IMG/VR virus record: IMGVR_UViG_3300024180_000005 | Location: 16,219 to 80,218 of that record | Strand: one strand, 5' to 3' | Origin: a virus | DNA length: 64,000 bases | Part shown: piece after piece, positions 23,838 through 54,573 of the stretch | Numbering within the stretch: position 1 is the first letter of the stretch | How the letters are laid out: the number at the start of each line of letters is the position of its first letter | The notes under the pieces: model-generated | Seen by the model: the letters and a program-made list of their open reading frames with translations, nothing else | Databases searched by the model: none | What the model was told of the DNA's origin: nothing | Translations under genes and position numbers: made by a program

Positions 23838-24437
23838 ATTCGTCTTTCCAGTCAGTCCTCCCAATTTGTCTTTAATTTACCGCAAGATTTCTTAAAGCCA
23901 GAAACTATAGATACATATCAACCCGTCTTAGAGAAGAATTGGGTACAATATGAGAATGTTATAGATTATCTTAATTCTACTATTAAGTCTGTTAATTTTC
24001 CAGGAATATCATTTGATATGCCAAAGCAAATATTAATGAGAGGTAAAGAAAGACAATTTAAACCTGCACAAAATGTTCAAGATATAACAACAACTCATGA
24101 GTTGACTGTTACATTTAGATCAGTAGATGCCGATTTAAATTATTGGCTTATGTTTGATGTATTGACTAAACATTACCTTGATGTTGAAAACGCATTCTTA
24201 AATCCATTTACTATAACTTGTGTAGATATACATAGGGACGCATTATATGTGATAAGATTTTATGAGATTATATTAAAATCTTTGTCGGATAATACCTTTA
24301 ATTATTCACAACAAAAAGTTGTTGCTAAAGACTTTACAATGACCTTCCACTTTAATTTCTATGATATAGAGTTTATCTTGGATAAGAGTAAGGTTCTGGA
24401 ACTTGGTGCATTACCTCAGATTATTCAACGTCTTTAA
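23838..24437 (+). CDS. T4 gp3-like tail terminator/tube-fold protein with probable non-ATG (ATT) start
   Basis: Frame open at least 60 codons upstream of ATG 24018 (IRLSSQSSQFVFNLP..KSVNFPGISF); SVNFPGI..ELTVTF..D..LNYW resembles gp3. Confidence 0.6.
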   Translation: MRLSSQSSQFVFNLPQDFLKPETIDTYQPVLEKNWVQYENVIDYLNSTIKSVNFPGISFDMPKQILMRGKERQFKPAQNVQDITTTHELTVTFRSVDADLNYWLMFDVLTKHYLDVENAFLNPFTITCVDIHRDALYVIRFYEIILKSLSDNTFNYSQQKVVAKDFTMTFHFNFYDIEFILDKSKVLELGALPQIIQRL

Positions 24438-24594
24438 TCTTATTATAAAGTTTATCAATAGAGTTCTTTCTTTTCCAAGATTTTGAAGAAGCCATATTCT
24501 GAATATTTTTTATTATATCAGCATCTATGTTCTTTGCGAGTTCTTCAGAAAGAATCTTCAGAAGTTCATCTTCTACGTTTATGTTATCTTTCAT
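24421..24594 (-). CDS. small protein (57 aa) with major-capsid spine-helix-like segment; absent from ORF track
   Basis: MKDNINVEDELLKILSEELAKNIDADIIKNIQ..KRKNSIDKLY; ATGA overlap with the upstream acetyltransferase. Confidence 0.65.
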   Translation of the reverse strand: MKDNINVEDELLKILSEELAKNIDADIIKNIQNMASSKSWKRKNSIDKLYNKIKDVE

Positions 24595-25115
24595 ATTAAA
24601 TTAAATCTACTAAATAAATCATCAAAATTAGATGAACATAAAAGAGGTGATATTTCATTAATTATTTGTTCATCCATATACCACCACTTTAGTTTTAATA
24701 AATTACTTATTATTTCATCACCAAAACGATATTTAATAACTTTTGCCGGATTACCACCAACTATTGAATATGAGGGAACATCTTTAACAACATGTGAATT
24801 ATTTGCTATAACTGAACCATCACCAATTTTAACACCACTCATTATAGTTGTGTTGGTTCCTATCCAAACATCATTACCTATTATAACATCACCATTAGTT
24901 TTAGGATGGCCTTGTCCATTAAATCTATCAAATGTTCCTAACTCAACATGACCAAAAGGATATGTAGTTACCCAATCAGTTCTATGGTTACCACCTAAAA
25001 ATACTTTTATATTACCACCAATAGAACAAAATGATCCAATATGTAATTGAGAACCTTCTCCCCAAGAAAATAAATTAATGTTATTATGTCCATATGTATA
25101 TCTACCAACTTTCAT
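24591..25115 (-). CDS. CatB/Vat-related hexapeptide O-acetyltransferase
   Basis: IGSFCSIG, NHRTDWVTTYPF, IGNDVWIG, VKIGDGSVI, IVGGNPAKVIKYRF. Confidence 0.92.
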   Translation of the reverse strand: MKVGRYTYGHNNINLFSWGEGSQLHIGSFCSIGGNIKVFLGGNHRTDWVTTYPFGHVELGTFDRFNGQGHPKTNGDVIIGNDVWIGTNTTIMSGVKIGDGSVIANNSHVVKDVPSYSIVGGNPAKVIKYRFGDEIISNLLKLKWWYMDEQIINEISPLLCSSNFDDLFSRFNLI

Positions 25116-25209
25116 TATTTTATTTTTGAGTACTTTGGATTCAGACTATTTAATAGATTAGTTATTGCAACTATTAATAATTAGTGGTATAATTGTGACT
25201 ACTCAAATT

Positions 25210-25791
25210 TTATTTTCTTTTTAATACAGTTAAACCGTTATTATTTTCATATTTTTCATATATTAACCATTTACTACCATTTTCTGTTTCTAAGAAATCT
25301 AAAACCGCATTCCATAATCCGTTTTTATTTGTAGATTTATTCTTAATATCATCACTCGCATGTTCATATATTTCTTCATCAACTAAACCAAATGATGTTG
25401 TATCATGTAAAATTATATATTTTGATGACTTATTTGAGTGCAAATTCAATTCTTGTATTAATTGGTTATAGGTATGTAAAGTATCAATAAATAATAAATC
25501 TGTTTTTTCTATTTCAATATTCAAAACATCAGATTCTATAAAAGTATAATCAATGCCATATTTATTTGCAATTTCAACCACATCATTTATTTTTTGGTTT
25601 TTTACAATATCATAGCTAATCATTTTTTTTGGATTGGACATCAACAAAGGCCAAGTTGATGAAACCCATCTAACTCCCATCTCAGTTATATGATCACATT
25701 CTTTACCATATTTTAATAAAGTAGGTAAATGTTCATTGATATCAGATGAAATATTACACTGTTCTTTATAAATTAATTCTATTTCTTTCAT
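25210..25791 (-). CDS. class I SAM-dependent methyltransferase (Methyltransf_24-like)
   Basis: SDINEHL, EMGVR, DLLFIDTLHTY, IILHDT, NNGLTVL. Confidence 0.8.
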   Translation of the reverse strand: MKEIELIYKEQCNISSDINEHLPTLLKYGKECDHITEMGVRWVSSTWPLLMSNPKKMISYDIVKNQKINDVVEIANKYGIDYTFIESDVLNIEIEKTDLLFIDTLHTYNQLIQELNLHSNKSSKYIILHDTTSFGLVDEEIYEHASDDIKNKSTNKNGLWNAVLDFLETENGSKWLIYEKYENNNGLTVLKRK

Positions 25792-25869
25792 TTTAATATT
25801 ATATTTTTTATTTATTGGTTGTGTTTACTCAATATTTACTATCTTTATAAGATAGTTTAATGGTAAAGT

Positions 25870-26634
25870 TTACGATAATAATTTAAAGTTTTTATACTTT
25901 TCCATTATTTTATTATATAGATTCTCATCTAAACTTATATTTTTTAAATCTGACCATTTTTCTATTATTAAAATAGGGTATTCTTTATAGTAAGAAATAT
26001 TTATACTATTCGTGACGACTGGAATCGATTTAAAGTATATAGACTCCCAAGTCTTATGACAATCTATACCATTACCATTTGGTGATATAACAAAATAACT
26101 TTTAGATATCTCACGTAAGTAGGACTCAAAATCAACTCTTTCTGAATTTTTAATTGGATATATACTATTTAAACATGTTGTTCTTTCATTCATATTAGTA
26201 TTAATATCTATATTACAATATACGTTATTTACTTTTTTATTATTTTCTATCATTACCTTTTTTATAATATCGGTATTACCGTGTGGCCACCTAATATTCG
26301 CAATTCCAATTGGAATAGAAAATAATTTATAATGTAAAAAGTTAATATTCTGACCATACCATTTTAGTAAATAATCATTATTCATTATTGATAAATAACT
26401 ATCATTTATAGAAAGATCACTATTATGTGTATATAATATAAATTTATTTTTAATATTTGGAAGAATAATTGATTTAAAATCATTTAACATATCTGTTTTA
26501 ACAAATATCTTCATCCCATCAAATTGATTAACTTTATTAATATCAAATTGATAAAACTCATCGTATATAAAATCACATTTCTTTCTATATCCCATCCCAG
26601 TTATAAAAGGAAGTGAATCTTTTGTTAAATCCAT
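25870..26634 (-). CDS. exostosin/GT47-like glycosyltransferase
   Basis: THNSD, IPIGI, FVISPNGNGIDCHKTWESIY..IPVV. Confidence 0.75.
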   Translation of the reverse strand: MDLTKDSLPFITGMGYRKKCDFIYDEFYQFDINKVNQFDGMKIFVKTDMLNDFKSIILPNIKNKFILYTHNSDLSINDSYLSIMNNDYLLKWYGQNINFLHYKLFSIPIGIANIRWPHGNTDIIKKVMIENNKKVNNVYCNIDINTNMNERTTCLNSIYPIKNSERVDFESYLREISKSYFVISPNGNGIDCHKTWESIYFKSIPVVTNSINISYYKEYPILIIEKWSDLKNISLDENLYNKIMEKYKNFKLLS

Positions 26635-27344
26635 AGGTTATTAATCATTTTATCTATTTCCAATTTATATTGTGAATATGGTCTAAGTGAGTGACAATCT
26701 ATATAATATCCCTTTTTTAAGGTATCAATATCATAAACCCAATTAGATCTATCAATCCTATTCATAGCCATACCATATTTCCAACCTCTCTCAGTTAGAT
26801 ATATTTTATCTCTATAATTAAACTCATTAACACATTTACCGAAATAAAGTTCATCAGTATCCCATCCCTGTTCAAACTTTGACAACCTATCACAATATTC
26901 ACCAAATTCACATTTTAAATCCAAAACATCGTTAAATATCTGACCTTTGCCAACATTATAGCATAACGGATATCTAGTTGTGTTATAAGCATCTGAACTT
27001 AATATAGCCAAACTATCATCATTTAGTTCATTAACTATATTATTAAAATAATAATGACTGAGAGGTAGCATATCTATATCGGATGTTATACAAACATCAT
27101 CTAGGTAATATTTTGTTATATACATTCTAACAATTTGTGACTGAAAGGCTGTTGAATAACCATCAACTGATTTTACTTCATGTATTATATGGTCGTCATT
27201 ATCGGTAACTAAATCCTTATCAGATATTAAAACTAATATAGGTTTTATTTTAATTAATTTAATCCAAAGATCCCTAACAATTGGCCAGAAATCCAAATAC
27301 ATAGGATTACTATCAGAAGCTACTATCGCGTAATCAATTTTCAT
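26625..27344 (-). CDS. putative glycosyltransferase
   Basis: DxD in SDIDMLP, WDTDE, IDCH; cluster context. Confidence 0.55.
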   Translation of the reverse strand: MKIDYAIVASDSNPMYLDFWPIVRDLWIKLIKIKPILVLISDKDLVTDNDDHIIHEVKSVDGYSTAFQSQIVRMYITKYYLDDVCITSDIDMLPLSHYYFNNIVNELNDDSLAILSSDAYNTTRYPLCYNVGKGQIFNDVLDLKCEFGEYCDRLSKFEQGWDTDELYFGKCVNEFNYRDKIYLTERGWKYGMAMNRIDRSNWVYDIDTLKKGYYIDCHSLRPYSQYKLEIDKMINNLWI

Positions 27345-27353
27345 TTATATGTA

Positions 27354-28016
27354 TTAAGTTTTTAATTTTTTTAATTTATTTTCTAATTCATTCATTATTC
27401 TAACATCACCAGTTCTATCACCAATAGTTTTACATCTAAAATGAAAATAATCAAAAATATTATCCGGGACCGGAGTATTTTTTATATCCAACCTTTTAGA
27501 AAAAGTTGGATAAATTCCAATATCTCTTAATAAACAAGCAAGTGCTACATCATCTATAAACTGATGATTCCATTTATTTCTATTTTCTACTACTTTTTCA
27601 ACTAAATCTTTGGATATAAAATATCCACAACCACTAGCGAAATTTATATCACCATGATTACCTATAATACCGTTATAAAACTCATTAAAAGGTTTATCAT
27701 CTAAATAGTCAACTAACTTCTCAATATTAACATAACTGCTACTATTGGTCCTAAAGATATAATCAAAATTATTACCTTTTAATAAAATCTCAAAAGCTCT
27801 AATAGTTTTATACCCTATATTATTATAACCTTCCGGATAGTTTGTTATTATTTTATCTTCATAAATGTACTCATCTTGCCCACCATGGTAAAAAAATACT
27901 TTTACATTATCTAGATTATGATTTGCCCAAGTTTTTTTTATACAATTCTCCAACATAACATAAGGTTCTTGATAATGACTCAATACCAATATTATTACAT
28001 TTTTTCTATTTGACAT
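27354..28016 (-). CDS. GT31-like (galactosyltransferase fold) glycosyltransferase
   Basis: IKKTW, YKTIRAF, YIFRTNSSSY, FASGCGY.IS.D, DDVALA. Confidence 0.65.
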   Translation of the reverse strand: MSNRKNVIILVLSHYQEPYVMLENCIKKTWANHNLDNVKVFFYHGGQDEYIYEDKIITNYPEGYNNIGYKTIRAFEILLKGNNFDYIFRTNSSSYVNIEKLVDYLDDKPFNEFYNGIIGNHGDINFASGCGYFISKDLVEKVVENRNKWNHQFIDDVALACLLRDIGIYPTFSKRLDIKNTPVPDNIFDYFHFRCKTIGDRTGDVRIMNELENKLKKLKT

Positions 28017-28020
28017 TATC

Positions 28021-28695
28021 CTAAAAATTTTTTATTATTTTCCAAAAATCAGGATGTCTCTCATTATTTGAATCAAAAACATCACCAACAAATTCATAAT
28101 CTACTCTTTTAGATGGGAATAATCTAGTCTCTCCACCAAAATTCAAACCAAATTCTGAATGCTCCATCGCCGTATTGGTGATAAGTGAATAAACACATTT
28201 TCCTAAAAAGTCTTGATCAATTCCCTTTCTCTGAAACTGATTCCAACCTTCAATTAATTTAATTATTTCAATTTTTCTCATTAATCCATTTCGTGAACCC
28301 CACATACCACCCAAAATAGGAACCGTATGATAAGGGTGATCTCTCATTATGTGAAAATCTTTATCTGATTCTAGCCACTCATTTACGGCATTTACTTCTC
28401 TCTCAGATATTCTAGAGTCACAATCTCTGGATAAAAATATATCAACATCTAAATCCTCAGATGCCCAGAATCGCCAAAACATACCGTGGAATGAGTCCTT
28501 TGAATCCACTAATATAACCTCAACATTATCACCTTTAATTGTTTCTATTAATTCTGTTTTTGAATTTTTATCAATATAAAATCTACAAATCCAACCGGGA
28601 TAATAAATTTTAGACAATTCTATATTTTTTAGTGCACCAACCCAATACATTGGGTCATCACCCCAAAGACTATAAGCTATTATATTTTTAGACAT
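28021..28695 (-). CDS. putative glycosyltransferase
   Basis: YSLWG, MFWRF, SRDCDSR, HIMRDHPYH, ILGGMWG, DQDFL. Confidence 0.6.
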   Translation of the reverse strand: MSKNIIAYSLWGDDPMYWVGALKNIELSKIYYPGWICRFYIDKNSKTELIETIKGDNVEVILVDSKDSFHGMFWRFWASEDLDVDIFLSRDCDSRISEREVNAVNEWLESDKDFHIMRDHPYHTVPILGGMWGSRNGLMRKIEIIKLIEGWNQFQRKGIDQDFLGKCVYSLITNTAMEHSEFGLNFGGETRLFPSKRVDYEFVGDVFDSNNERHPDFWKIIKNF

Positions 28696-29428
28696 TTAAT
28701 AAATTTATTTTTTCTATAACACGATCAAACCTAGATTTATTAGGTATTTTATGAATAGGAGAAACTATGCTATCAACAAATCTTTCTCTTTGATGCCACA
28801 TATGTATTATAGTATTATTTAGTAGATTTGTTGTCTGAAATTCCTCACCAAAAACAGGTTCTAAATATTTAAATTTTATTCCATTGTCTTTCAAAACCCA
28901 CATAAAATCATAATAAGGCTCTGTTTCTGGCTTCCAAATCATACCCAAAGGTTTACCAGAAGATCCAAATTCCATATTATACTCATAGTGTGAATGATTT
29001 CTTTTCTCATATGGATAATCCTCTATCCATTCCTTTTTAAATTGTGGAATTTTTTTCCTATTATGCCAAGTGTCTATACATTTTCTATTCATTATCATAA
29101 AAAATGAATTAAGCGCCATGTGATTACCACTCCTATACTCAAAATGACCATCTGGAGGTCCGGCAATATCAATATTATTATCTTCCATTTCTTTAATAAG
29201 ATTTATTATCTCATCATTAGATGTTATAAAACAATCTTCGTCTATATGTACATACCAATCTGATTCAAAATCTTTTGAAAAGTTCAACCAATCATACCAA
29301 ACCATAAACCATCCCTTTCTACCATCGAATTTAATATGATTAGAATCTGGGAAATTTTTTCTTATACATTCATCTTGTGTTTTTTGTATATCTGAAAATG
29401 TACTTGTTGTAAAAAATGTTATTTTCAT
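28688..29428 (-). CDS. putative glycosyltransferase
   Basis: HIDEDCF DxD motif; cluster context. Confidence 0.5.
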   Translation of the reverse strand: MKITFFTTSTFSDIQKTQDECIRKNFPDSNHIKFDGRKGWFMVWYDWLNFSKDFESDWYVHIDEDCFITSNDEIINLIKEMEDNNIDIAGPPDGHFEYRSGNHMALNSFFMIMNRKCIDTWHNRKKIPQFKKEWIEDYPYEKRNHSHYEYNMEFGSSGKPLGMIWKPETEPYYDFMWVLKDNGIKFKYLEPVFGEEFQTTNLLNNTIIHMWHQRERFVDSIVSPIHKIPNKSRFDRVIEKINLLNV

Positions 29429-30156
29429 ATTTTAATATTTATTTTTGTTGTTTCGATGAATTTTTTTATCTGTGTACAAAATAATCCATCCTTCCCTCTT
29501 AAATAATCATCTGGATTAGAAGTTATAGAATCATCTATTCTCCAAACACCACCTAATTTAATCATATCAGAATAAAAGAAACTTGCAAATTCGGTCCAAC
29601 TGATATAATCATAGTTTGTCTTATGTGTACGGTGGTTTATAATCTCATTTTCTATATGATATATTTTAATCCCTAAACGATTAGCAACCATAGGTAACCA
29701 AAAATCCCACCATGGCATTCCAATTACATAGTTTTTATTGTAAAAAAGTTCAATATTTTTTTTATCAAAAATAAACAAATCATATCCATCGGGAAATGGG
29801 TAAGAAGGGACATCACCCAATTCCCATCTCGTTGCTATAACTAAGGAATCATCAAAGAATTTATTTAGTTTTATTTTTTTATTAAGTATAATATCAGAGT
29901 TAACTATAGCACATTTATCAGTATTAGTCAATTTTATAGCATCTAATATAGCATCTAATCTTACCAAAGTTTTTTTATCAACCTGAAATGTTTTTCTGGT
30001 CTTAACTATGTTAACATCAGGATATAAATCTTTTATAATTTCTATCTCTTCTTCCGTATTTACGGTATAAACATCATATTCCTTACACCAAGAATCGATT
30101 GCCTCTTTTTGTGCATCAAAATTACCATATGGGTTTATTGTTGTAAATACTTTCAT
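29425..30156 (-). CDS. putative glycosyltransferase
   Basis: VNSDII, GYDLFIF, GMPWWDFW, H..H. Confidence 0.55.
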   Translation of the reverse strand: MKVFTTINPYGNFDAQKEAIDSWCKEYDVYTVNTEEEIEIIKDLYPDVNIVKTRKTFQVDKKTLVRLDAILDAIKLTNTDKCAIVNSDIILNKKIKLNKFFDDSLVIATRWELGDVPSYPFPDGYDLFIFDKKNIELFYNKNYVIGMPWWDFWLPMVANRLGIKIYHIENEIINHRTHKTNYDYISWTEFASFFYSDMIKLGGVWRIDDSITSNPDDYLRGKDGLFCTQIKKFIETTKINIKI

Positions 30157-30860
30157 TAATTAACTTCCAATCTTTTTTCAACAGACATAGATTGTCTATT
30201 CTTCCAAGTAATATCATCTTCACCCCATTTAGCATTATAAGCTTGGTCTGCTTGGTCTGCTTCTCTTTTACCGGCAGCGTAATGTAAATGTTCAAACATC
30301 GTCTCATCGTTCAACCTATCGTCGTAAAGTAGGTTTAAATCTTTTAAATTATTATATAACTCACAGTCGCTAAACATGTGGTTGTATGCGGGATGGTATA
30401 TAACTCCATTCATTTTTCTTAAACAACCATAAGTCATTATAGGAATAGTAATGGCAGGATGTAACATATTAGATGAGTCTGGTAATTGATAGCCATCTCT
30501 AACCATCAATCCAACATCTCCTTTCCCTTCTAACTTATTAGTTAAGTACGTGTCCCATCCTTGTGGTGCCATAAAGTCATCGCTTGCAAAGATAACAATA
30601 TCACTATCTTCACATTTACCCATCTTAATACCTAAGTTAGAAGATAATTGATAGGATGGATAACAAACACCAATCTTATTTGTATTTAATGTAATTAAAA
30701 AGTTATTTTTTAAATAATCTTTTAATTCTGTAGCCTGTTGTTCCCAATTAACCGCAACGTAGGTTTGTATATTTGATGGATTATCTGCTCGTTTAATCCA
30801 TTCAGTGTGCATTTCTTTAAATTGTTGAGGGCGAATTGTTGCCCATAAAATGTGTATCAT
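30156..30860 (-). CDS. GT2-like glycosyltransferase
   Basis: ATIRP, FASDDF, GWD, YNHMFSDCEL, FEHLH. Confidence 0.65.
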   Translation of the reverse strand: MIHILWATIRPQQFKEMHTEWIKRADNPSNIQTYVAVNWEQQATELKDYLKNNFLITLNTNKIGVCYPSYQLSSNLGIKMGKCEDSDIVIFASDDFMAPQGWDTYLTNKLEGKGDVGLMVRDGYQLPDSSNMLHPAITIPIMTYGCLRKMNGVIYHPAYNHMFSDCELYNNLKDLNLLYDDRLNDETMFEHLHYAAGKREADQADQAYNAKWGEDDITWKNRQSMSVEKRLEVN

Positions 30861-30966: not shown

Positions 30967-33084
30967 TTATTCATCTTTTTTCTTTCTTGGCTTCCTAGTG
31001 GCCTTTTCTATAATAACAAATGATTCATCATCTTCTTTGTTATAATCTAGTAAGAATTTTGTCCCTTCTTTTGGATTATTCTCAATGATATAATCTGTTA
31101 CAATATCATCAACCCATCTTTGAATTGCCCTCTTTAAAGGTCTAGCACCATATTTAGGATCATACCCTACTTCAACTAAGTGATCTTTCAAAGTTTCAGT
31201 TATTTCAGTTGGGTAACCAATATCTGCAGCCCTTTTAACAGTTTTAACTAACTCTAAGTCTACAATTTTAAGAATCTCTTCTTTACCTAAATCTCTGAAG
31301 TAGATAATTTCATCAATTCTGTTGATAAACTCTGGTGCGAATTTGTTTTTCAACTCTTTCTCTAGGATACCTTTGATTTCTTCATCTCTTACATTTTCTT
31401 TATTCTTTGTAGAGAATCCAACTCCTGTACCGAAATCTTTAACTAATCGAGTACCTACATTTGAAGTCATTAAGATAATACAGTTTTTAAAACTTACTTT
31501 TCTTCCGTGTGAATCGGTAACTTGACCATCATCTAACATCTGTAAGAATAGGTTAAATACTTCTGGATGTGCTTTCTCAATCTCATCAAAAAGAATAACT
31601 GAATAAGGCTTTCTTCTAATTCTATCAAGAACATTGGTATCTTCATAGCCAACATATCCTGGTGCAGAACCTTGTATTTTAGATAAAGAGATTTTATCCA
31701 TATATTCTGACATATCTAATCGAATCAAAGAATCTTCAGAATCAAATAAATATTTTGCAATTTGTTTAGCTAACTCGGTTTTACCAACTCCCGAATTACC
31801 AATAAGCATTCCAGAAAAAACCGGCTTGTTAGCATCTTTCATACCAACTCTACCTCTTTGAATTGCTCTTACAACTTTCTTAACGGCATCATCTTGACCA
31901 ATAACCTTTCCACAAATCTCAGAACCCATCTTAGCAAGTCTTGTATTTTCTTTCTCACCAACTTTTTGTAAAGGAATACCAGTCATCATAGAGACTACTT
32001 GTGCAACATTATCCTCGGTAACTATTTGTTTATTTCTAGAAGATTCTTCTTCCCAGTCTTTTCTTGCCTTTTCTAAACTCTCATTTAATTGACGTTCAAC
32101 ATCTCTTAATTTAGCAGCATCTTCATATTTCTGTGATCGAATAACTTCATTTTTCTTCTCTTTTATATCGGCTATTTTATTCTCAATATCTGTAATTTCT
32201 TTAGGAACTACAATATTTGAAATATGTACTCTTGATCCGGCCTCATCTAGTGCATCAATTGCCTTATCTGGTAAAAATCTATCGGTAATATATCGATCTG
32301 TTAAATCAACACAAGCCTTAATTGCTTCTGTTGTATATTCAACATTATGGTGAGACTCATATTTATCTTTAATATTATTTAAGATTTCCATACTTTCTTC
32401 AGAAGAAGCAGCCTCAATTGTAACTTTTTGGAATCTTCTTTCTAAAGCACCATCTTTCTCAATATGTTTTCTATACTCATCAAGTGTAGTTGCACCAATG
32501 ATTTGTATCTCACCTCTTGCCAATGCTGGTTTAAACATATTAGATGCATCCATTGATCCAGAAGCACCACCGGCACCAATCATTGTATGAATTTCGTCGA
32601 TAAATAAAATAACATCCGTATTTTTCTCCATCTCTGTCATAAGAGCTTTAATTCTTTCTTCAAATTGTCCTCTATATTTAGTACCAGCAACCATTGACGC
32701 CAAGTCTAGCATAACAACTCTTTTATTGAAGAGAATTCTACTTACTTTTCTTTGAATAATTCTTAAAGCTAATCCTTCTGCTATAGAAGATTTACCTACA
32801 CCTGGTTCACCAATTAAAATTGGATTATTCTTTTTTCTTCTTGCTAAAATTTGAGAAACTCTTTCGATTTCTTTCTCTCTTCCAACAATTGCATCAAGTT
32901 TACCATCTTCTGCCATTTTAGTCAAATCTCGACTATATGTATCTAGAACCGGAGTTTTAGACTTTGCGTCAGTTTTTTTACCTGAACTATAAGAACTATC
33001 ATCATCATCATCATCAAATGTCGCCTTCATATTTGGCAATCCTTTAAGGTATTCATCCCCTTTTGATTTTTTATTATTTCCCAT
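30967..33084 (-). CDS. clpC: ClpC-type AAA+ chaperone lacking the N-terminal Clp repeat domain
   Basis: Two AAA modules (GEPGVGKS/FIDEIH; GNSGVGKT/FDEIEKAH), UVR M-domain (YEDAAKLRD), ClpP loop VGF, GARPLKR. Confidence 0.93.
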   Translation of the reverse strand: MGNNKKSKGDEYLKGLPNMKATFDDDDDDSSYSSGKKTDAKSKTPVLDTYSRDLTKMAEDGKLDAIVGREKEIERVSQILARRKKNNPILIGEPGVGKSSIAEGLALRIIQRKVSRILFNKRVVMLDLASMVAGTKYRGQFEERIKALMTEMEKNTDVILFIDEIHTMIGAGGASGSMDASNMFKPALARGEIQIIGATTLDEYRKHIEKDGALERRFQKVTIEAASSEESMEILNNIKDKYESHHNVEYTTEAIKACVDLTDRYITDRFLPDKAIDALDEAGSRVHISNIVVPKEITDIENKIADIKEKKNEVIRSQKYEDAAKLRDVERQLNESLEKARKDWEEESSRNKQIVTEDNVAQVVSMMTGIPLQKVGEKENTRLAKMGSEICGKVIGQDDAVKKVVRAIQRGRVGMKDANKPVFSGMLIGNSGVGKTELAKQIAKYLFDSEDSLIRLDMSEYMDKISLSKIQGSAPGYVGYEDTNVLDRIRRKPYSVILFDEIEKAHPEVFNLFLQMLDDGQVTDSHGRKVSFKNCIILMTSNVGTRLVKDFGTGVGFSTKNKENVRDEEIKGILEKELKNKFAPEFINRIDEIIYFRDLGKEEILKIVDLELVKTVKRAADIGYPTEITETLKDHLVEVGYDPKYGARPLKRAIQRWVDDIVTDYIIENNPKEGTKFLLDYNKEDDESFVIIEKATRKPRKKKDE

Positions 33085-33114
33085 ATTTTTAGTTTAAAGT
33101 TATTTTTATTATAG

Positions 33115-33462
33115 TTACTTTTTTATAAAAGTTGTTTTATTATTATTTAATATCTCATCGATTAAATTATCTCTTATATCAGATTTACTATGTATATATA
33201 TATTTTCACATCTGATACTTATAGACATATTTCGATTAAATTCTATATCGATTGTCTTTATATATGAATGACTTGATTTAAATTTCATTGTATATATTTC
33301 AAATATTTTTCCTCGATCATATAAACTTATAAATTCATCATAATATTCTGGATGATTCTTAATATCAAATTTTAGATACATAATTGCACAATTCTCAAAT
33401 GAGAGTTGTGTTTCACATTCCAAAACATAGAAATTTTTATCACCAATCTTTATACAATTCAT
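33115..33462 (-). CDS. hypothetical protein with C-terminal RxxxIDxIL motif
   Basis: ..DIRDNLIDEILN; ATGA coupling to upstream gene. Confidence 0.7.
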   Translation of the reverse strand: MNCIKIGDKNFYVLECETQLSFENCAIMYLKFDIKNHPEYYDEFISLYDRGKIFEIYTMKFKSSHSYIKTIDIEFNRNMSISIRCENIYIHSKSDIRDNLIDEILNNNKTTFIKK

Positions 33463-34083: not shown

Positions 34084-35017
34084 ATGGATATAATAGTTAG
34101 ATTAAAAAACCATAATACTAAACTATCAATTTCTAATTTAGAATTATATAAAAATGATAGTTCTAAACTAAATTTTAGATGTGAGTGTGGTTATGAATGG
34201 TCTGCAGTATACAGAGATATATTGAGATCAAAAAGAAATAATGGTTGTGTAAAATGTCAAAAAAGAAGTAAATCTGAAAGAGTATATACTTTATCAAATG
34301 ATGTTTATTTAAAAAGAGTTAATGAATATTGGGGGGGATAAGATTGAAGTTTTGGAAGAGTATAAAAAGGGAGAAGATAAAATTAAAATTTTATGTAAAG
34401 TTTGTGATAATGTATGGAATCCAACTGCTAGATCATTATTGAGAGGAAACGGATGTCCAAAATGTGGACATGAGAAAACAAAATTATCTCGTATTAAAAG
34501 TAATGAAAAATATTTAGAAGAGTTGAAATATGTTCATGATGATAGAATAACTTTAATCGATAAATATATTAATAGTAATACAAAAGTTAATTTCAAGTGT
34601 TGTTTGTGTGATAATACATGGTTAGCCAATCCTAACATGATATTAAGAGGAAGAGGTTGTCCAAAGTGTAAATTTTCCAAAGGTGAGTTATTAATTTCAA
34701 AATTATTAAAAGATATAGATATAGAATTTAAGGAACAATTTATTATAAAAGGATTAAAAACTAACAAAGGTGGTACACCTAGATTTGATTTCGCAATTTT
34801 TGAAAACAATGTTTTAACAAAAATTATTGAATATGATGGAATTTTACATTTTGAACCTGTTAATAAATTTGGAGGATTAAAAAGACTAAAAGAACAAAAA
34901 GAAGTTGATGATTTTAAAAATAAATATTGTATCAAAAATAATATTAAAATGATAAGGATACCATATTATGACATTTCAAAAATAGACATTGAATATCTAA
35001 AAAATAAAATTATTTGA
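34084..35017 (+). pseudogene. zinc-ribbon repeat + Vsr/DUF559-like homing endonuclease split at a G7 run
   Basis: ORFs 34084..34341 and 34322..35017 fuse as YWGDKIEV if one G of 34331-34337 is removed; CxxC..W..GCPKC repeats; SKGE..FDF..IEYDG.H..D..KN.YC..IRI.Y. Confidence 0.75.
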
Positions 35018-36484: not shown

Positions 36485-36805
36485 TCATTTTCTTGTTTCT
36501 CCTACGAAAACTATATTATGGTCTCTTACCAGTCTTTCTAAATGAAGATTGTCTTTTTTATATAGATAGAACTTCCCTTCTTTGTATGTCTCAACGAATA
36601 AATATTCTTCACCGTGTAGCTCGACTCCGTATAACCTATCTTCTTTACCAATACCAATCTCTGTATGGTCATTTCGTTTAAGCCAAGTAAGTATTCCGTT
36701 GCCTTCTTCATTTGTCATTATATCGATATATTTAAAAATATACATATCTTCTAATTCGTCTAATATCCATTTTTTTGAATCAACTTCAAAATATACTTTT
36801 TTCAT
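36485..36805 (-). CDS. hypothetical protein
   Basis: 106-aa ORF coupled to upstream gene. Confidence 0.7.
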   Translation of the reverse strand: MKKVYFEVDSKKWILDELEDMYIFKYIDIMTNEEGNGILTWLKRNDHTEIGIGKEDRLYGVELHGEEYLFVETYKEGKFYLYKKDNLHLERLVRDHNIVFVGETRK

Positions 36806-37050
36806 ATTCCTAATTCATTTATTTTAAAATCTCTTGTTTCATCCAGATCCAATGTTCTTAGATGTCTTTCATGTACAACTATGTCGTATTCTTCATCATC
36901 TAAAGAAAAGAAAACTCTTATATAGTTTTTGTTTTCAAAAGTAGCTTTATAGATACAACCAGATTTTAGAGGTTCATAGCAAAATTCTCTGATTTCGTTA
37001 TCATCCGATATTAATTTTACATACATATTACATTCCAATTTTTTTCTCAA
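36802..37050 (-). CDS. hypothetical protein with C-terminal RDFKINEL motif
   Basis: Ends DETRDFKINELGI; true start may be an internal Met. Confidence 0.7.
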   Translation of the reverse strand: MRKKLECNMYVKLISDDNEIREFCYEPLKSGCIYKATFENKNYIRVFFSLDDEEYDIVVHERHLRTLDLDETRDFKINELGI

Positions 37051-41178: not shown

Positions 41179-41892
41179 TTATTTGATTGATAATACTCTC
41201 ACCTTTGCATTTTTTGTACTGAATATTCTATGATAACCATCGATAATTTTCCATTTATCACCTGACTTCTTTACAACTCCTCTAATACCACTATAGATTT
41301 TATCAGAATAAAAATTCAATTCCTTCTTAGATACTTTATCTAAATGACCTTTCGATCCAAATATTATGTCTGTCTTATCTATTGTAATAGATTCATAGTT
41401 TGCATCAACAATCTCTGGTAGAACTTTACCATACTCTAAATTCAAAAGATATTCTACCTTCTCTTTTAAAGTAGAAAGAGAGAATACTAAAAAAAGTTCT
41501 GACTCGATTTTATCTGCGATATTTTCTTTAATTTTAACATCACCTATTTCATCACCATAATAACCACCTTCAATTTCGATATCCCAGTTTTGGTTTTCCC
41601 ATATTTTATATGATCTTAGTATTCTATCAATCGTATAAATATCTATGTCTTTACCTACTCCATAAAGTACTTCGTTGATTGCGTTATTTCTGTCTGCTAC
41701 TTTACCTTGCTCAAAGAAATCGTCATATATTTTTTTAACAATAAAAGATACGTCTACTGATTCAATACACACATCATAAATACTACCACATCTACATATA
41801 CCTTCATCATCACATCCATAATTTTCACAATCATAGCTGTTACTATAGTCTACATAAACGCCGTTGTATTGAAATGTTATATCTTTGAGCAT
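41179..41892 (-). CDS. hypothetical protein with C-terminal ParB/Srx-like motif
   Basis: Cys cluster CENYGC..CRC; IIDGYHR. Confidence 0.65.
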   Translation of the reverse strand: MLKDITFQYNGVYVDYSNSYDCENYGCDDEGICRCGSIYDVCIESVDVSFIVKKIYDDFFEQGKVADRNNAINEVLYGVGKDIDIYTIDRILRSYKIWENQNWDIEIEGGYYGDEIGDVKIKENIADKIESELFLVFSLSTLKEKVEYLLNLEYGKVLPEIVDANYESITIDKTDIIFGSKGHLDKVSKKELNFYSDKIYSGIRGVVKKSGDKWKIIDGYHRIFSTKNAKVRVLSIK

Positions 41893-42855: not shown

Positions 42856-43488
42856 TTATAACTTTAATATTTTGTTTTGTTCCTTACCCAATATTTCGAA
42901 TCTCTTCCAGTATCCAGAGCTTATAGACTCTTTGTCTAGTCCTGTATAATATACGGTACCACCAATATCTACTTTAATTATCTTTGGCACATCAAAGTTT
43001 TTGACGTTTTTGTATTTTTCACAAAGTTTTAAATCCGATAATTGTTCGATATAATTGAAAACATGACGATCAAATGAAGATTTCATTCTTTCCAATCTTC
43101 TAAGTTCTTCACCAAGCTCGAATTTTCTTTTGTTATTTAAGATAAAGTCTATCTTTTCTTCTCTACACTTTACAATATCCTTTGAAAAAGTAACTCTATC
43201 TGTTGAGTAGGACCATCCAAAATTGTCGTCTTTTCTTATAGAGTATTTACAAGTGATTCCATCTCTATCAAAGAAGACATGAATTTCACCGCTTTCCATT
43301 GGTTCAACTTCATTTATTATCTTATTCATAAATTCAGAAAATTCTTGTCTTCTTTTAAGTGATCTTTCTTCAACACGAAGATATAGGTCATGTATATCTT
43401 TTAAAGTCCATTCTTTTGGATCTCTGTTGAATTTTAATTTAAACTCATATTCTTTCAAGAAATTTACTCCAAGATTTTTATTATACAT
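42856..43488 (-). CDS. hypothetical protein with internal REEKIDFIL motif
   Basis: 210-aa ORF in operon. Confidence 0.75.
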   Translation of the reverse strand: MYNKNLGVNFLKEYEFKLKFNRDPKEWTLKDIHDLYLRVEERSLKRRQEFSEFMNKIINEVEPMESGEIHVFFDRDGITCKYSIRKDDNFGWSYSTDRVTFSKDIVKCREEKIDFILNNKRKFELGEELRRLERMKSSFDRHVFNYIEQLSDLKLCEKYKNVKNFDVPKIIKVDIGGTVYYTGLDKESISSGYWKRFEILGKEQNKILKL

Positions 43489-43491: not shown

Positions 43492-43734
43492 TTATTTTTT
43501 TAAAGTCTCATCAATTCTTATATCTCTTTCAATCACTTCTTTATTTTGTTTGTACCAAATTCTAAAGTCACATCCATAATATATGAGCTCTTTTATAGTT
43601 CTACCATCTTCTTCGTATTCAGCACTACATGTTTGACCAATCATGAATCTATTAAAACTTTCTTTCCAGATATCCGGAATTTCAGATTCTCTAATATCTC
43701 TACATTCTTCGTATATTTCTTTTAAATTTTTCAT
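43492..43734 (-). CDS. hypothetical protein with C-terminal RDIRIDETL motif
   Basis: 80-aa ORF, ATGA coupling. Confidence 0.7.
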   Translation of the reverse strand: MKNLKEIYEECRDIRESEIPDIWKESFNRFMIGQTCSAEYEEDGRTIKELIYYGCDFRIWYKQNKEVIERDIRIDETLKK

Positions 43735-47607: not shown

Positions 47608-47621
47608 AAAAAAGAGATATT

Positions 47622-47789: not shown

Positions 47790-47832
47790 AATGTATATAC
47801 GATTTTAAAGTATATATACAAATCTATACTCC

Positions 47833-48462: not shown

Positions 48463-48505
48463 AAATATTTTTTTAAGTTTGTTGTACAAATATAAGGATA
48501 ATATT

Positions 48506-49162: not shown

Positions 49163-49211
49163 AGAGTTTATATGATATTTGATAAGAAAAGTCCTTTTTG
49201 ATATATAAATA

Positions 49212-49790
49212 ATGAAATTTATAAGAACGTTTAATGATAGACATAATGTTGATTCTGTATCATATGCTGATATTTCGGAATATATTAGAGAAGAGATTCA
49301 ATTGGGTATTGTTAAACCATTTAATATTGAACATAGTTTATATAAATCGGGTGATTATATATGTTCATCATTTAAAATAAATGATAGAGATGTTGTAGTT
49401 TCATCTATTGTTATAGATAATTCTGAAACGCATTGTGTTGGTTGTGGTCAAAATTATAAAACTTTATCGGATTGTATAAATCAATATGGTATAAAATCAA
49501 ATGAGTATTTAGTTATAGGATTTGGTGAATATTTGGAAGGATTTTATAATGATGATAGTACATTTTTTCGAAAAATGGCAACTATAGTCGAAATTATAAA
49601 ATCTATGGTTTTATATCATAATTTGAATTATATAATTTTTAATTCTGTTGAGAATGTTGATTATAAAAGGAGAGATAAATTTTATGAACTTTTTTTATCA
49701 TATAATAATATTGAAAATTATAAGATTAAATCAAAAATAGATATTGGTGGTGAGATATTATCTGATTTTTATTTTTTAAAGGTTTCATAG
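49212..49790 (+). CDS. tagged hypothetical protein
   Basis: Starts MKFIRTFND; GATATATA-N4-ATG. Confidence 0.7.
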   Translation: MKFIRTFNDRHNVDSVSYADISEYIREEIQLGIVKPFNIEHSLYKSGDYICSSFKINDRDVVVSSIVIDNSETHCVGCGQNYKTLSDCINQYGIKSNEYLVIGFGEYLEGFYNDDSTFFRKMATIVEIIKSMVLYHNLNYIIFNSVENVDYKRRDKFYELFLSYNNIENYKIKSKIDIGGEILSDFYFLKVS

Positions 49791-49853
49791 TCTTTTTGTT
49801 TGTCAGTAGGATGTAAAAAAACCAGGTTGTATCGCTAGTAACTTTGTGTAAAA

Positions 49854-49928
49854 TTAACTACATAATGGTTGTAAGTTTGTGTAGTGATTTAATTTTATTA
49901 TATCTTCTTCTGTTTTTGCTGATGATAT
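49854..49928 (-). pseudogene. C-terminal remnant of an HNH endonuclease
   Basis: ISSAKTEEDIIKLNHYTNLQPLCS*, no start; typical post-DHxxP segment of phage HNH/EndoVII-like enzymes. Confidence 0.65.
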
Positions 49929-49941
49929 AGATTAAATTATG

Positions 49942-50133
49942 TTAATATATTCTTTTAAATAATTCGTGAATATCTAATGTACCTTCTCTATATTTAAATT
50001 CTTTTAGTCGTCTATCTGGAAATTTATCATTTCTCCATTTAGAAGAGACTGATTTATTAACCTCGAAATATTCTTCGAGTTTTTTGGAATATTTTCGTTG
50101 TATATAGAACTCTATGAAAAATATATCTATCAT
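49942..50133 (-). CDS. small protein coupled to the MTase, possibly HTH-like
   Basis: 63-aa ORF with ATGA overlap; LEEYFEVNKSVSSKWR. Confidence 0.6.
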   Translation of the reverse strand: MIDIFFIEFYIQRKYSKKLEEYFEVNKSVSSKWRNDKFPDRRLKEFKYREGTLDIHELFKRIY

Positions 50134-51770: not shown

Positions 51771-51833
51771 ATATTGATTTTATTTTTATGTTAAGTTACA
51801 AACTTTTTTATATTATATATAAAAAAGTTTACT

Positions 51834-54041
51834 TTACTTTTTAAAAAGTAAAAGATAATCATCATCGTCTAATTGTTTGATTATATTTACTTTTTCTTCT
51901 TCTTCCTTATTCTTTATCTGTTCTTCTAAATTTATTTTAATCTGAATCTCTTCTTCCTGTATTTCTACTTTAACCCGTTCAATCATTTTTTTAAATTTAG
52001 CGGAGTCAAAATTGACATTTATATCAATCGTTTTTTCGTAATTTGGTTTTTCATATTTTTTACCACCTTTTCCTTCATCATCGATTACCGAAATATCCCA
52101 TTGTTCTTCCGGAATTCCTTGATCAAGTAAAAATTTAATAATCATCTTAACTCTATTTGAGAAGGTATCTTCATTCACTGCTAAGTAAATGACATTATAA
52201 TATTTTTCCCATCCATCGGGACTATCTAAAGAAATTAGGCCTTTTTCGAATTTTATGGTATCTGAATATAATGCTCTATCAGGTCTTCCTATAGATTGTT
52301 GTAATGAAATTATATTCATCTCTCTACCTATTAAACCACCATGTAAATTTGGTAGATTTATACCTTCTTTTGCAACAGAGTGTTGATGTAATATATTACC
52401 ACCGGACAATTTAATATATTCTATTATTTTTTCTCTATCATCAGTACTGGTCTCTGATGCCATGAAGTGATTTTTAACATCTGGTAAATGTTTAATCATT
52501 TCTTTACTATTTGCTATGTATCTACATCCTTCAACATGATCACCAAAAGTAATCAAATTTGGTTTTTCGTAATACTTACAAAGATCTTTATATGCAACAA
52601 TGGAAGAAACTGCTTCAATTTGTGCCTTATCTATATCTAACTTTATTCTTGTCGCGTCTCTTTTTGTTTCATTTGAATTTGATATAGATTTAATCTTTAA
52701 CAGTTTAAAGATTAATTTTGGTGCTACGAACCCTCTTTCTCTTAAATCATTTCTATTGACTTTTGCCAATAATGAACCAAATAAATCTTCATTAAATGAG
52801 CTTAATATTTCACCAAACTTATTTGATGCACTATAAAATATAGTTCCATCACATCTATCTTCATTATTTTTTAAATAATCTGCAATTTCGAGCTGGGTTT
52901 TTCTATCAGATGATGTAGATATAATATTGTGATATTCGTCTATTAGTTCTATTCCTATTTTTATATTTTTTTCTTTTAACTTTTCAACTATATTAGAATA
53001 TTTAAGACCTTGTGATTTCATAGTTGAAAATATGATAACTTTTCTACCCTGACTTCTTTCATTAATAATAAAATCTATTGCTTTTTGTGTATCTAATGTT
53101 TGTAAAACATTTGCAACTAAATCATTGTATCGTGGATTACTACCTGATCTTATAATTAAACATGATACGTTTGACTTAGTGATTTCACCATTCAATTCTT
53201 TGTGACCAAACATTTTCCATTGATAAAATTCTTTAAATGTTTGACTAATAAGAGATATAGTAGGTAGTATCATTACACAAATATCTTTATTGTACTTTTT
53301 AAATGCTCTGTCAACATTATAAAATTGACATAATGTTTTTCCCGCACCTGTTGTTGCATCAACTCTTCCTTTTGTTAAAGTACCATCTAAAACTCTTTCT
53401 GTTCCTAAATATCCCTTTTCTTTGTGACCATCCATTATCCATAATTGAACCTCTCTTGGTTTATATGGATCTTCAAAGAAATCAACTACTGAGTCTTTTA
53501 TACATTGTCTAAAATCATCCCAAAATTTTGGATCTCTTAGTATATAATCTTCTTGTGTACTTCTACCAATAACTCTTCTCGCATTTCTAGCACCTTTGAA
53601 TTTATAGTCAAATAAGTCTTCATTATCATCAAAGTTAATGAAAAGTATATTATTGTCTTTATCAATACCTAGATTCCTAGCCATCTCACCATTTGATCCT
53701 AAATCACCAATTTTAAATTGGTGATTTGGATTACTTCTCCATTTAGACTGTATTTGACCAGGTAAATCATTAAAATCGGTATATGTGAAATCATATCCAA
53801 CATTAAATGCATCATCACTGGTATCTGTTATTTGTCTTATACCTAATAGTGGATTTTCATTTCTTAGACAAAAGAATTGTGTAAATATTTCAAATGCCAT
53901 ACCGACTCTATCATTATATTCTGATGGATTTGACTCACCATATTTTTTAATAGAGTCATTCATATCTGAATATGAATTAACATTATCAAATACATTATCT
54001 TTTTCAATTTTATAAACCGATAAGTGAGTTATTTTTTTCAT
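51834..54041 (-). CDS. SF2 (ResIII-like) helicase with N-terminal Mrr-like nuclease domain
   Basis: FE..D.G.D..QSK nuclease pattern; TTGAGKT, PTISL.SQ, DEYH, SAS, EGINLP, QQSIGR. Confidence 0.8.
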   Translation of the reverse strand: MKKITHLSVYKIEKDNVFDNVNSYSDMNDSIKKYGESNPSEYNDRVGMAFEIFTQFFCLRNENPLLGIRQITDTSDDAFNVGYDFTYTDFNDLPGQIQSKWRSNPNHQFKIGDLGSNGEMARNLGIDKDNNILFINFDDNEDLFDYKFKGARNARRVIGRSTQEDYILRDPKFWDDFRQCIKDSVVDFFEDPYKPREVQLWIMDGHKEKGYLGTERVLDGTLTKGRVDATTGAGKTLCQFYNVDRAFKKYNKDICVMILPTISLISQTFKEFYQWKMFGHKELNGEITKSNVSCLIIRSGSNPRYNDLVANVLQTLDTQKAIDFIINERSQGRKVIIFSTMKSQGLKYSNIVEKLKEKNIKIGIELIDEYHNIISTSSDRKTQLEIADYLKNNEDRCDGTIFYSASNKFGEILSSFNEDLFGSLLAKVNRNDLRERGFVAPKLIFKLLKIKSISNSNETKRDATRIKLDIDKAQIEAVSSIVAYKDLCKYYEKPNLITFGDHVEGCRYIANSKEMIKHLPDVKNHFMASETSTDDREKIIEYIKLSGGNILHQHSVAKEGINLPNLHGGLIGREMNIISLQQSIGRPDRALYSDTIKFEKGLISLDSPDGWEKYYNVIYLAVNEDTFSNRVKMIIKFLLDQGIPEEQWDISVIDDEGKGGKKYEKPNYEKTIDINVNFDSAKFKKMIERVKVEIQEEEIQIKINLEEQIKNKEEEEKVNIIKQLDDDDYLLLFKK

Positions 54042-54069
54042 AATTTTTTAATTTTAACAAATATAGTAA

Positions 54070-54573
54070 TTATTTCAATATACTATTTATTTTTTGCTCT
54101 CTAATATCAATAAAATGTTTATTGAACTCTTTTATAGTCAAATAGACTCGACCACCTCTATCATCGAATATGATAACATCATCCTTACCAAGGAAAGAAT
54201 CGTATATGATTACATAGTTGTATTGTATCGTCTCGTAAAAGTTATATCCACCCTTTGCTCTCTGTTCTTTATTCTTGAATCTCTTTATACAAACACATAT
54301 TCTGGTATCATATGTTTTCCCACCAGTCCTATATTTCTCTGTTTTTAACTTTCTCTTCTTTAAAATCTGTATTTTATTGAAATCAATTATACGATTGTGT
54401 ATAATCTTCCTCGCTTTCTGAAACTCCTTTATAAAAGAATCTTCTAATCCCCTTTCTCTAATAAATTTCTCAGGTGAAAATTTGAAGACTTCCTCTAATA
54501 GAAATTTATTACTCTTACATATCTCTATGGTCTTGAGCATCTCGATCCATTTATTATAGTCTTCTAATGCCAT
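54070..54573 (-). CDS. hypothetical protein with C-terminal REQKINSIL motif
   Basis: Ends FNKHFIDIREQKINSILK; ATG 54573 taken as likely start. Confidence 0.7.
   Translation of the reverse strand: MALEDYNKWIEMLKTIEICKSNKFLLEEVFKFSPEKFIRERGLEDSFIKEFQKARKIIHNRIIDFNKIQILKKRKLKTEKYRTGGKTYDTRICVCIKRFKNKEQRAKGGYNFYETIQYNYVIIYDSFLGKDDVIIFDDRGGRVYLTIKEFNKHFIDIREQKINSILK

Follow-up and report, generated by a model that had tools for sequence, protein, structure and literature searches.

A C-terminal helical motif common to unrelated small proteins of an uncultured huge-phage lineage, with a possible role as a docking label

The stretch of DNA considered here (the window: 64,000 nucleotides (nt), corresponding to bases 16219-80218 of the 80,218-bp viral contig IMGVR_UViG_3300024180_000005 of IMG/VR) encodes several small, otherwise unrelated proteins that end, or nearly end, in a common short peptide whose most frequent form is R-[DE]-x-K-I-[DN]-x-[IV]-L. 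This motif is a real and portable label, located at or near the C-terminus of unrelated bodies, kept in their orthologs and found throughout the clade of phages to which the contig belongs. As for its function, we give an even chance to the reading that it is a portable C-terminal docking helix for one shared receptor, where we infer both the binding and the singleness of the receptor. A docking label that recruits diverse proteins to one hub, such as the phage ClpC, had been proposed in an initial annotation of the window made from the letters alone, and the analyses presented here follow up that proposal. Feature coordinates are window positions unless marked as contig positions, and proteins are named by the first coordinate of their open reading frame (ORF), as listed in Table 1.

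Enrichment and C-terminal position of the motif

The contig has a G+C content of about 28% and a CheckV completeness of 16%, and it represents part of the genome of a jumbo phage, a relative of LR756502.1. Its nearest named records are the uncultured "huge phage" genomes LR756502.1 (642 kb) and LR745206.1 (635 kb), whose ClpC-like proteins are 70-71% identical to that of the window; a 344-kb IMG/VR genome, referred to as G003, is closer (84-86% ClpC identity by two measures), with matches in it for 58 of the 114 ORFs of the contig. A megablast search of phage records with 15 kb of the window returned no match. Greedy calling of non-overlapping ORFs of at least 40 amino acids (aa) gave those 114 ORFs (24,933 aa), which cover 93% of the contig, 993 ORFs for the whole LR756502.1 genome and 503 for G003.

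The strict pattern R[DE].[KRL]I[DN].[ILT][LG] matches 5 of the 114 contig ORFs, where the composition-based expectation is 0.011 matches anywhere and 0.0007 in the last 21 residues. In per-protein, composition-preserving shuffles, 0 of 300 rounds reached five matches overall or four near the C-terminus; the lack of C-terminal enrichment over shuffled sequences, which the initial annotation had named as the outcome that would speak against a label, is therefore not what was found. Since this pattern was written after the matches in the window were known, the genomes other than the contig constitute the real test. In LR756502.1, a looser pattern, R[DE]..I[DN].[ILVT][LG], matches 38 of the 993 ORFs, 28 of which have no more than seven residues after the nine-residue core (9-mer). 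A hidden Markov model (HMM) of the motif, built from these matches and iterated once, was then run on the 1107 ORFs of both genomes, in line with the scan for count and positional bias that had been suggested at the outset. At 8 bits or more it yielded 112 matches, 85 of them within 8 residues of the stop codon, against three in a shuffled proteome and one in a reversed proteome, none of which was C-terminal. Chance is excluded as the source of the motif.

Two forms of the motif can be told apart. Class A, R-[DE]-x-K-I-[DN]-x-[IV]-L, is followed by 0-8 polar residues, and class B, R-x-x-[KR]-L-x-x-[LI]-G-I, ends exactly at the stop codon. The latter is visible even from the last three residues, given that ORFs ending in [LIV]G[ILVF] number 41 of 993 in LR756502.1 (3.6 expected) and 49 of 503 in G003 (1.9 expected), and that nearly all of them carry an Arg nine residues from the end. 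When the HMM and the regular expressions for both classes are combined, C-terminal tags, as we call the motif from here on, are present on 143 of the 993 ORFs of LR756502.1 (14.4%), on 76 of the 503 of G003 (15.1%) and on 4 of the 114 of the contig, while the same procedure finds a mean of less than 0.3 in shuffled controls and none in reversed ones. Tagged proteins are small (median 115-120 aa, versus 147-165 aa for all ORFs), and their genes are somewhat clustered, with 21 adjacent pairs where 11.4 are expected.

According to the column counts, with Arg as position 0, the residues R, D/E, K, I, N/D, I/V/L and L are conserved, which leaves positions 2 and 6 as the free ones. By simple arithmetic on these counts, the conserved positions (0, 1, 3, 4, 5, 7 and 8) span about 200 degrees of a helical wheel; because they cover most of the wheel, the pattern fits a helix held in the groove of a partner better than a solvent-exposed cap.

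Distribution across phages

In IMG/VR, a degenerate DNA pattern for class A gave at least 124 matches, at least 82 of which have eight or fewer residues before the stop, and many of them lie on contigs of 100-480 kb. Five near-complete relatives of 271-483 kb contain between 6 and 16 profile matches each at E ≤ 1. RaK2, GAP32, Atu_ph07 and XbC2, cultured jumbo phages of 346-490 kb, gave no tag match; these four encode a ClpA/ClpC-like ATPase that lacks an N-domain and is comparable to that of the clade. Because the relatives carry matches and the four cultured jumbo phages none, the tag belongs to one uncultured AT-rich lineage. A literature search, in which full-text hits were judged on titles and the openings of abstracts, turned up no publication on this motif. 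Short terminal tags common to several proteins are familiar from other systems, and what distinguishes the present one is its scale, its predicted helical nature, its two forms and its mutual exclusivity with an N-terminal tag (see below).

Unrelated bodies, predicted folds and conservation

The claim that the bodies carrying the motif are unrelated is borne out by two lines of evidence, sequence comparison and structure prediction. In an all-against-all BLASTP comparison of the 43 bodies upstream of the motif, the sole significant pair corresponds to the orthologs encoded upstream of ClpC, with two further pairs at 4e-4 and 2e-3. Pfam left 104 of 107 tagged LR756502.1 proteins without a family, the other three being a helicase with an internal match and two sub-threshold assignments, to a zinc ribbon and to DUF2158. 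By eye, the small tagged proteins are diverse and include K-x-G-D-x-V barrels, V-V-C-I-N types, proteins with C-x-x-C pairs and all-helical ones.

Two of the window's proteins were modelled with AlphaFold, and the folds differ. The 33115 model (7 sequences; predicted local distance difference test, pLDDT, 85.8) has a beta-rich body followed by a helix at residues 93-111, along which the confidence drops. Over residues 1-91 the model can be superposed on Hcp and tube proteins (VIA-align Z 10-12.3, root-mean-square deviation about 1.8-2.3 Å over 81-90 residues), among them Bacteroides fragilis Hcp2-Hcp3, Hcp1 and the tube proteins of Mu, of a gene transfer agent and of lambda, with 152 chains at Z ≥ 8; the Foldseek E value is 4e-3, and the tag helix lies outside the aligned core. 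With this superposable beta-sandwich core, the 33115 protein is, as modelled, of the Hcp/tail-tube fold. The 36802 model (4 sequences; pLDDT 90.8) comprises five strands and then a helix at residues 61-71 that bears the tag, and its barrel is weakly SH3-like (Foldseek E about 0.04, TM-score about 0.5). In both models the tag helix begins 2-3 residues past the last strand, so that the predictions present two folds with one common terminal helix.

Conservation of the tag across orthologs is seen for the 33115 protein, whose 12 aligned sequences are only 23-87% identical: just 5 columns of the alignment are invariant, the Arg of the tag among them, and RDNLIDEIL occurs in twelve forms. More generally, orthologs with 23-50% identity in the body mostly retain the tag, and there are only 28 cross-genome best matches for 141 tagged proteins. 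With the 33115 protein, a search for related loci in IMG/VR gave no relative, and a word-indexed homolog search gave only two close homologs. A 19-column motif profile run against the PDB gave only internal matches to acyl-CoA dehydrogenases, with E about 5, and no solved tagged protein; a 32-column profile run against 1.84 billion representative proteins gave a single match at E ≤ 0.001 (35 aa), such a profile being too short for a library of that size.

Constraint on the peptide

At each conserved position of 81 tags, synonymous codon usage mirrors that of the whole genome; different copies of the tag use differing synonymous codons, positions 2 and 6 are free, and every match in a long ORF lies in the coding frame. 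For these reasons, the constraint acts on the peptide and not on the DNA.

Some features of the gene ends were recorded as well. Among LR756502.1 ORFs of up to 260 aa, the median gap to the next gene is -1 nt for tagged and 6 nt for untagged genes, and gaps of 5 nt or less are found for 72% of 117 tagged versus 49% of 464 untagged genes. In the same genome, TGA stops close 46 of 139 tagged genes (33%) and 96 of 660 untagged ones (15%). The tight spacing of the tagged genes may reflect only dense gene arrays or dubious ORFs in the untagged set.

Relation to the N-terminal tag

Other proteins of the contig share an N-terminal tag of the approximate form M-K-[YH]-[LI]-K-x-F-[NE]-E (at the N-termini, for example, of the ORFs at 14363, 15218, 16145, 36011, 49212, 59332 and 61927), which we take to resemble the capsid-targeting sequence of phage T4. 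Overlap between the two tags was evaluated with our own regular expression for the N-terminal one. In LR756502.1, where 86 of 993 ORFs have the N-terminal tag, it is found on 1 of 143 C-terminally tagged ORFs and on 85 of 850 others (Fisher p 3e-5), and in G003 the corresponding figures are 0 of 76 and 24 of 427 (Fisher p 0.036). Pooled, 1 of 219 C-terminally tagged ORFs and 109 of 1277 others carry it (Fisher p = 4e-7), which amounts to near mutual exclusivity by regular expression and supports the idea, already advanced for the window alone, that the two tags are complementary. The accompanying statement that none of the window's carriers has the N-terminal tag is true for four of them, and the 43492 protein starts with MKNLKEIYEE, a weak resemblance only.

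Motif carriers in the window

All six peptides initially proposed as copies of one motif are present where they had been reported, on the minus strand, and five of them do fit a common motif, R-[DE]-x-[KR]-[IL]-[DN]-x-[ILV]-[LG], with scores of 10.6-17.5 bits in the iterated HMM (Table 1). The sixth, KRKNSIDKLY in the 24421 mini-gene, does not: it reached 1.8 bits in the first HMM and less than 4 bits in the iterated one. That all of them lie on the minus strand is true as well, although uninformative, because 57 of the 85 window ORFs are on that strand (p = 0.14 for five). The tagged genes sit among replication and accessory genes, not among structural ones. Elsewhere on the contig, outside the window, there are two weaker candidates, with 7.2 and 6.4 bits. 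Neither Pfam nor PHROGs gave anything above the cut-offs for the six proteins.

Table 1. Carriers of the motif, the non-member mini-gene and the ClpC-like gene in the window
Feature	Coordinates	Strand	Motif copy and position	Residues after 9-mer	HMM score (bits)	Remarks
173-aa ORF	54070..54591	-	ends IREQKINSILK; 9-mer at 54076-54102	1	15.6	class A
80-aa ORF	43492..43734	-	ends ERDIRIDETLKK; tag at 43501-43527	2	10.6	no Pfam or PHROG family
210-aa ORF	42856..43488	-	CREEKIDFILN, internal; residues 109-117 (43138-43164)	93	13.1	internal copy
82-aa ORF	36802..37050	-	ends TRDFKINELGI; tag at 36808-36834	1		class B
115-aa Hcp/tail-tube-like protein (as modelled)	33115..33462	-	RDNLIDEIL; residues 97-105 (33148-33174)	10		
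57-aa mini-gene	24421..24594	-	KRKNSIDKLY			not a member of the tag family
705-aa ClpC-like AAA+ unfoldase	30967..33084	-				Pfam AAA, AAA_lid_9, UVR, AAA_2 and ClpB_D2-small, all above cut-offs

Orthologs of the 54070 protein retain the tag and end in DIREDKINSILK and DYRDHIINDLLN, so that REQKINSIL becomes REDKINSIL and RDHIINDLL. The protein itself has no Pfam or PHROG family and no tblastn match among phage records, and in the ESM Atlas it matches only unnamed viral clusters, with its residues from about 92 to 173 resembling viral proteins of 75-89 aa. In the 42856 protein, the internal REEKIDFIL aligns with RDEKLTFIL of the LR756502.1 ortholog, at a body identity of 30%. The 36802 protein is probably 74 aa long, with its start Met at 37026, and its stop codon overlaps the start codon of the next gene (ATGA); its orthologs end in EIRDYKLNKIGI, EYREEKLKQLGI and EVREYRINQIIC, where RDFKINELGI is replaced by RDYKLNKIGI, REEKLKQLGI and REYRINQIIC.

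The 24421 mini-gene, whose tail contains SWKRKNSIDKLY, weakly matches families of major capsid proteins (PF07068, E 2.5e-4, below the cut-off of that family; phrog_138, E 1.1e-3). A K-[YW]-R-S-I-D tail, which that of the mini-gene recalls, is not enriched here, as SID[DEK] is near the C-terminus in 2 of its 51 occurrences. Separately, a 237-aa protein encoded at 41179-41892 (minus strand) is conserved in G003 and LR756502.1, with 38-41% identity among the three, and has an internal tag-like stretch in all three genomes (RNNAINEVL, RESRINELL and RNNTINSIL).

ClpC and its Hcp-like neighbour

The ClpC-like protein of the window has the two AAA+ modules, the UVR-type middle domain and the D2-small domain of a ClpC-type unfoldase. 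Pfam gave no Clp_N match at E ≤ 0.001 in the phage ClpC; the 12 aligned orthologs all start about 45 residues ahead of the first AAA module, and the N-terminal part is an acidic low-complexity stretch. The protein is 57-91% identical in 11 related records and conserves a G-V-G-F stretch, presumably a loop of the type that docks to ClpP. PMC12583610 has the N-domain of ClpC and the resting state as its stated topic.

The window and 14 other records (among them LR756502.1, LR745206.1, G001, G002, G003, G004, G006, G011, G015, G021 and G023) have the tagged Hcp-like gene directly upstream of the ClpC gene. In G020 and G026, whose ClpC genes are the most distant, it is missing from that place, and in G005 neither gene was found. 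The pair at 30967-33462 (minus strand) can be described on its own as a conserved two-gene module that joins a predicted Hcp/tail-tube fold to a ClpC devoid of Clp_N. ClpP is encoded in one to three copies in LR756502.1, G001, G002, G003, G005 and G009.

Three near-complete genomes separate the tag from these enzymes: G005 (89% complete) and G009 (83% complete) have 6 and 8 tag matches, respectively, with ClpP but no ClpC/AAA_2 match, and G004 (94% complete) has 11 tag matches with ClpC/AAA_2 but no ClpP, bearing in mind that these completeness values are estimates and that host enzymes could substitute. Since there are tag-bearing genomes without each of them, neither the phage ClpC nor the phage ClpP is a universal receptor, and the phage ClpC in that role is disfavoured. 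A complex prediction for ClpC and the Hcp-like protein (alignments of 12 rows each) scored 0.00 in two runs made with no controls, and counts neither way.

Other chaperone-related genes were noticed in the surroundings. An Hsp70/DnaK gene lies upstream of the window, at contig positions 6940-8724 on the minus strand (PF00012, 817 bits), and the N-terminus of the ORF at 1-707 (plus strand) looks like a DnaJ J-domain, by eye only.

A proposed docking helix for a shared receptor

The reading that we put forward is that a short amphipathic alpha-helix of about 10-13 residues would be added past the last structural element of otherwise unrelated small proteins. Its Ile/Leu face (positions 4, 7 and 8) would plug into a hydrophobic groove of a shared receptor, and the invariant Arg0, Asp/Glu1, Lys3 and Asn/Asp5 would make specific polar contacts. 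In this manner, many accessory proteins of diverse kinds might be gathered at a single machine or site. Either the host or the phage may encode the receptor, in the latter case as a protein that goes unrecognised. The phage ClpC is itself a candidate partner of the tag, and its proposed role as the hub has circumstantial support, in that the tagged Hcp-like gene adjoins ClpC in 15 records; against it, G005 and G009 have tags and no ClpC, and the tag is missing from the four cultured jumbo phages that encode a ClpA/ClpC-like ATPase.

A number of observations weigh against a docking helix. About a quarter of the HMM matches (27 of 112) are internal, more than 8 residues from the stop codon. The helix of the 36802 protein is confidently predicted (residues 61-70, pLDDT about 89), and because of this it could pack on its own domain. 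In 22 cross-genome pairs, identity in the core motif (94 of 154, 61%) exceeds that of the body (1810 of 3805, 48%, a figure dominated by one long helicase pair) only modestly. Homologs in G003 were found for 20 of 162 tagged and for 84 of 633 untagged small proteins of equal size; with no difference in conservation between them, the tag marks no special evolutionary class. The ORF sets come from greedy calling and not from a gene finder, which makes the denominators approximate. Lastly, no binding partner of the tag was found.

Short modules of this kind have precedents in other viruses. In poxviruses, a PRANC/F-box-like module docks to a single host hub, and the ankyrin proteins carrying it combine, as the tagged proteins do, variable bodies with one conserved short C-terminal module. 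The analogy is partial, given that the poxvirus module belongs to a eukaryotic virus, is longer, is attached to bodies that are all ankyrin and has a known host hub, whereas here the bodies differ in fold and the receptor is putative.

Sliding-clamp partners provide another precedent: T4 and RB69 gp43, gp33 and gp55 carry C-terminal tails that bind the sliding clamp, and partners of PCNA carry a PIP-box. The PIP-box consensus is Q-x-x-[ILM]-x-x-[FY]-[FY], and that of the beta clamp is QL[SD]LF. Like these, the tag is a short C-terminal motif on many proteins, and the spacing of its D1-x-x-I4-x-x-I7-L8 resembles Q-x-x-h-x-x-a-a. Unlike these, it has an invariant Arg and a Lys, its column counts show neither the Gln nor the aromatic pair of the PIP-box and clamp-binding consensus, and about 15% of all ORFs are tagged, far above any known clamp clientele. 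No match to the sliding-clamp families PF02916 (gp45) and PF00712 (beta clamp) was obtained in five related genomes, in a search whose PF02916 control matched nowhere.

Alternative explanations

That the helix needs no receptor at all is unlikely, although several observations agree with it. It would be a structural cap or a self-association element (closing barrels, or forming rings or bundles), inherited by or copied onto fast-diverging small proteins. The helix does come directly after the last beta-strand, with good model confidence in the SH3-like protein, and Hcp/tube and Sm/SH3-like barrel folds often form rings. The ending L-x-x-L-G-I is a classical helix C-cap (Schellman motif), with which class B agrees, and the clustering of tagged genes fits local duplication. 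However, the polar positions are conserved like the hydrophobic ones across more than 100 dissimilar bodies and at least two predicted folds, which an intramolecular cap would not need. Moreover, the four other jumbo phages, also rich in small proteins, lack the tag, the Hcp/tube core of 33115 (residues 1-91) aligns without the helix to solved proteins, and the exclusivity with the N-terminal tag suggests an address function.

A tag read by Clp machines, either as a degradation signal for the phage ClpC or for host Clp ATPases with ClpP, or as an adaptor tether that delivers targets, seems quite unlikely to us. ssrA-type C-terminal degradation tags and SspB-type XB peptides direct proteins to bacterial Clp AAA+ machines, and the resemblance is that of a short C-terminal peptide common to unrelated proteins, one of which is encoded here beside ClpC. 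This gene order in 15 records, the absence of both genes from G005, the loss of Clp_N with retention of the G-V-G-F stretch (presumably for ClpP docking), the ClpP genes of the clade and the Hsp70 of the contig are all in keeping with a Clp connection, and so is class B, which ends exactly at the carboxyl end like ssrA-type tags. As to position at the extreme C-terminus, class B reaches the stop exactly, class A adds 0-8 residues, and 27 of the 112 HMM matches lie farther than 8 residues from the stop. Tags persist in genomes with no match to phage ClpC/AAA_2 (G005 and G009) or without phage ClpP (G004), so that, considering phage-encoded enzymes only, a cognate unfoldase or protease does not accompany the tag wherever it is used, and the four cultured jumbo phages with a similar ATPase are untagged. 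The tag also differs from the SspB and ssrA peptides in sequence, to which it is unrelated, and in being a predicted helix placed directly after the fold (2-3 residues past the last strand in both models), where degrons and tethers usually have a flexible linker and a disordered tail. In addition, an SspB-type tether is received by an N-domain, which the phage ClpC lacks.

We regard as improbable that the docking site is the capsid interior, a scaffold or another phage-built structure, with the tag acting as a cargo-loading or localisation peptide, as in encapsulin cargo. Encapsulin cargo-loading peptides and the T4 capsid-targeting sequence are likewise short terminal address peptides on unrelated proteins, the tag is short, C-terminal and carried by many of them, its exclusivity with an N-terminal tag presumably akin to the T4 sequence is what two alternative addresses would produce, and giant capsids may well have room for many internal proteins. 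On the other hand, the T4 sequence is N-terminal and cleaved, encapsulin peptides are Gly/Ser-rich and on flexible linkers, and the tagged genes of the window are among replication and accessory genes and not structural ones. The T4-type late promoter word, which may not be the promoter of this clade, is no commoner upstream of tagged ORFs (4 of 143) than of others (35 of 765).

Finally, it is hardly credible that the peptide is the by-product of a nucleotide signal at gene ends (for recombination, or for coupling to or initiation of the next gene) or acts as a nascent peptide on the terminating ribosome: tagged genes of LR756502.1 do abut the next gene more tightly and have more TGA stops, but the comparison includes dubious greedy-called ORFs that would inflate the gaps of the untagged set, the genome-like synonymous usage at every conserved position largely refutes such an origin, and the free positions 2 and 6, the variable tail of 0-8 residues, the 27 of 112 matches farther than 8 residues from the stop and the coding frame of every long-ORF match all speak against it.

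Implications

The majority of huge-phage genes are small ORFans that offer no clue to their function. A label carried by about one in seven ORFs groups these ORFans, gives a bait for a common partner and offers a testable idea of how accessory proteins are organised. Should the proposed docking helix bind a protease or a hub of the host, it would amount to a naturally occurring recruitment module that can be transferred and used in bacteria; should it bind a phage structure, this would indicate that infected cells sort proteins by more than the capsid-targeting sequences known so far. The module made up of a predicted Hcp/tube-fold protein and a ClpC without regulatory N-domain is unusual and of biochemical interest in its own right.

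A broader and more speculative scheme, unlikely as it stands, would be a two-address sorting code, given that about 15% of the ORFs carry the C-terminal tag, roughly another 5-9% carry the T4-like N-terminal tag by our regular expression, and almost none carry both. In such a code, the receptor of the C-terminal tag (a hub of the host, a scaffold or a compartment built by the phage) would gather a large set of fast-changing small effectors in one place, and the Hcp-like, putatively ring-forming protein beside ClpC would be either a dedicated client or a gatekeeper.

Other features of the window

PHROGs annotation of the 85 ORFs of the window points to replication and nucleotide metabolism (a gp32-like single-stranded DNA-binding protein, a UvsX-like recombinase, ribonucleotide reductase and a helicase), with further matches to several homing endonucleases, a few virion proteins and one ATP-dependent protease ATPase. 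HNH/homing-endonuclease loci with strong PHROG matches are located at 10281-12035, 18369-20330, 34084-35017 and 57441-58676, the third being split into two adjacent ORFs. At 25870-30860 (minus strand), seven ORFs follow one another, each of 220-254 aa and none assigned to a PHROG family; two of them have orthologs in G003.

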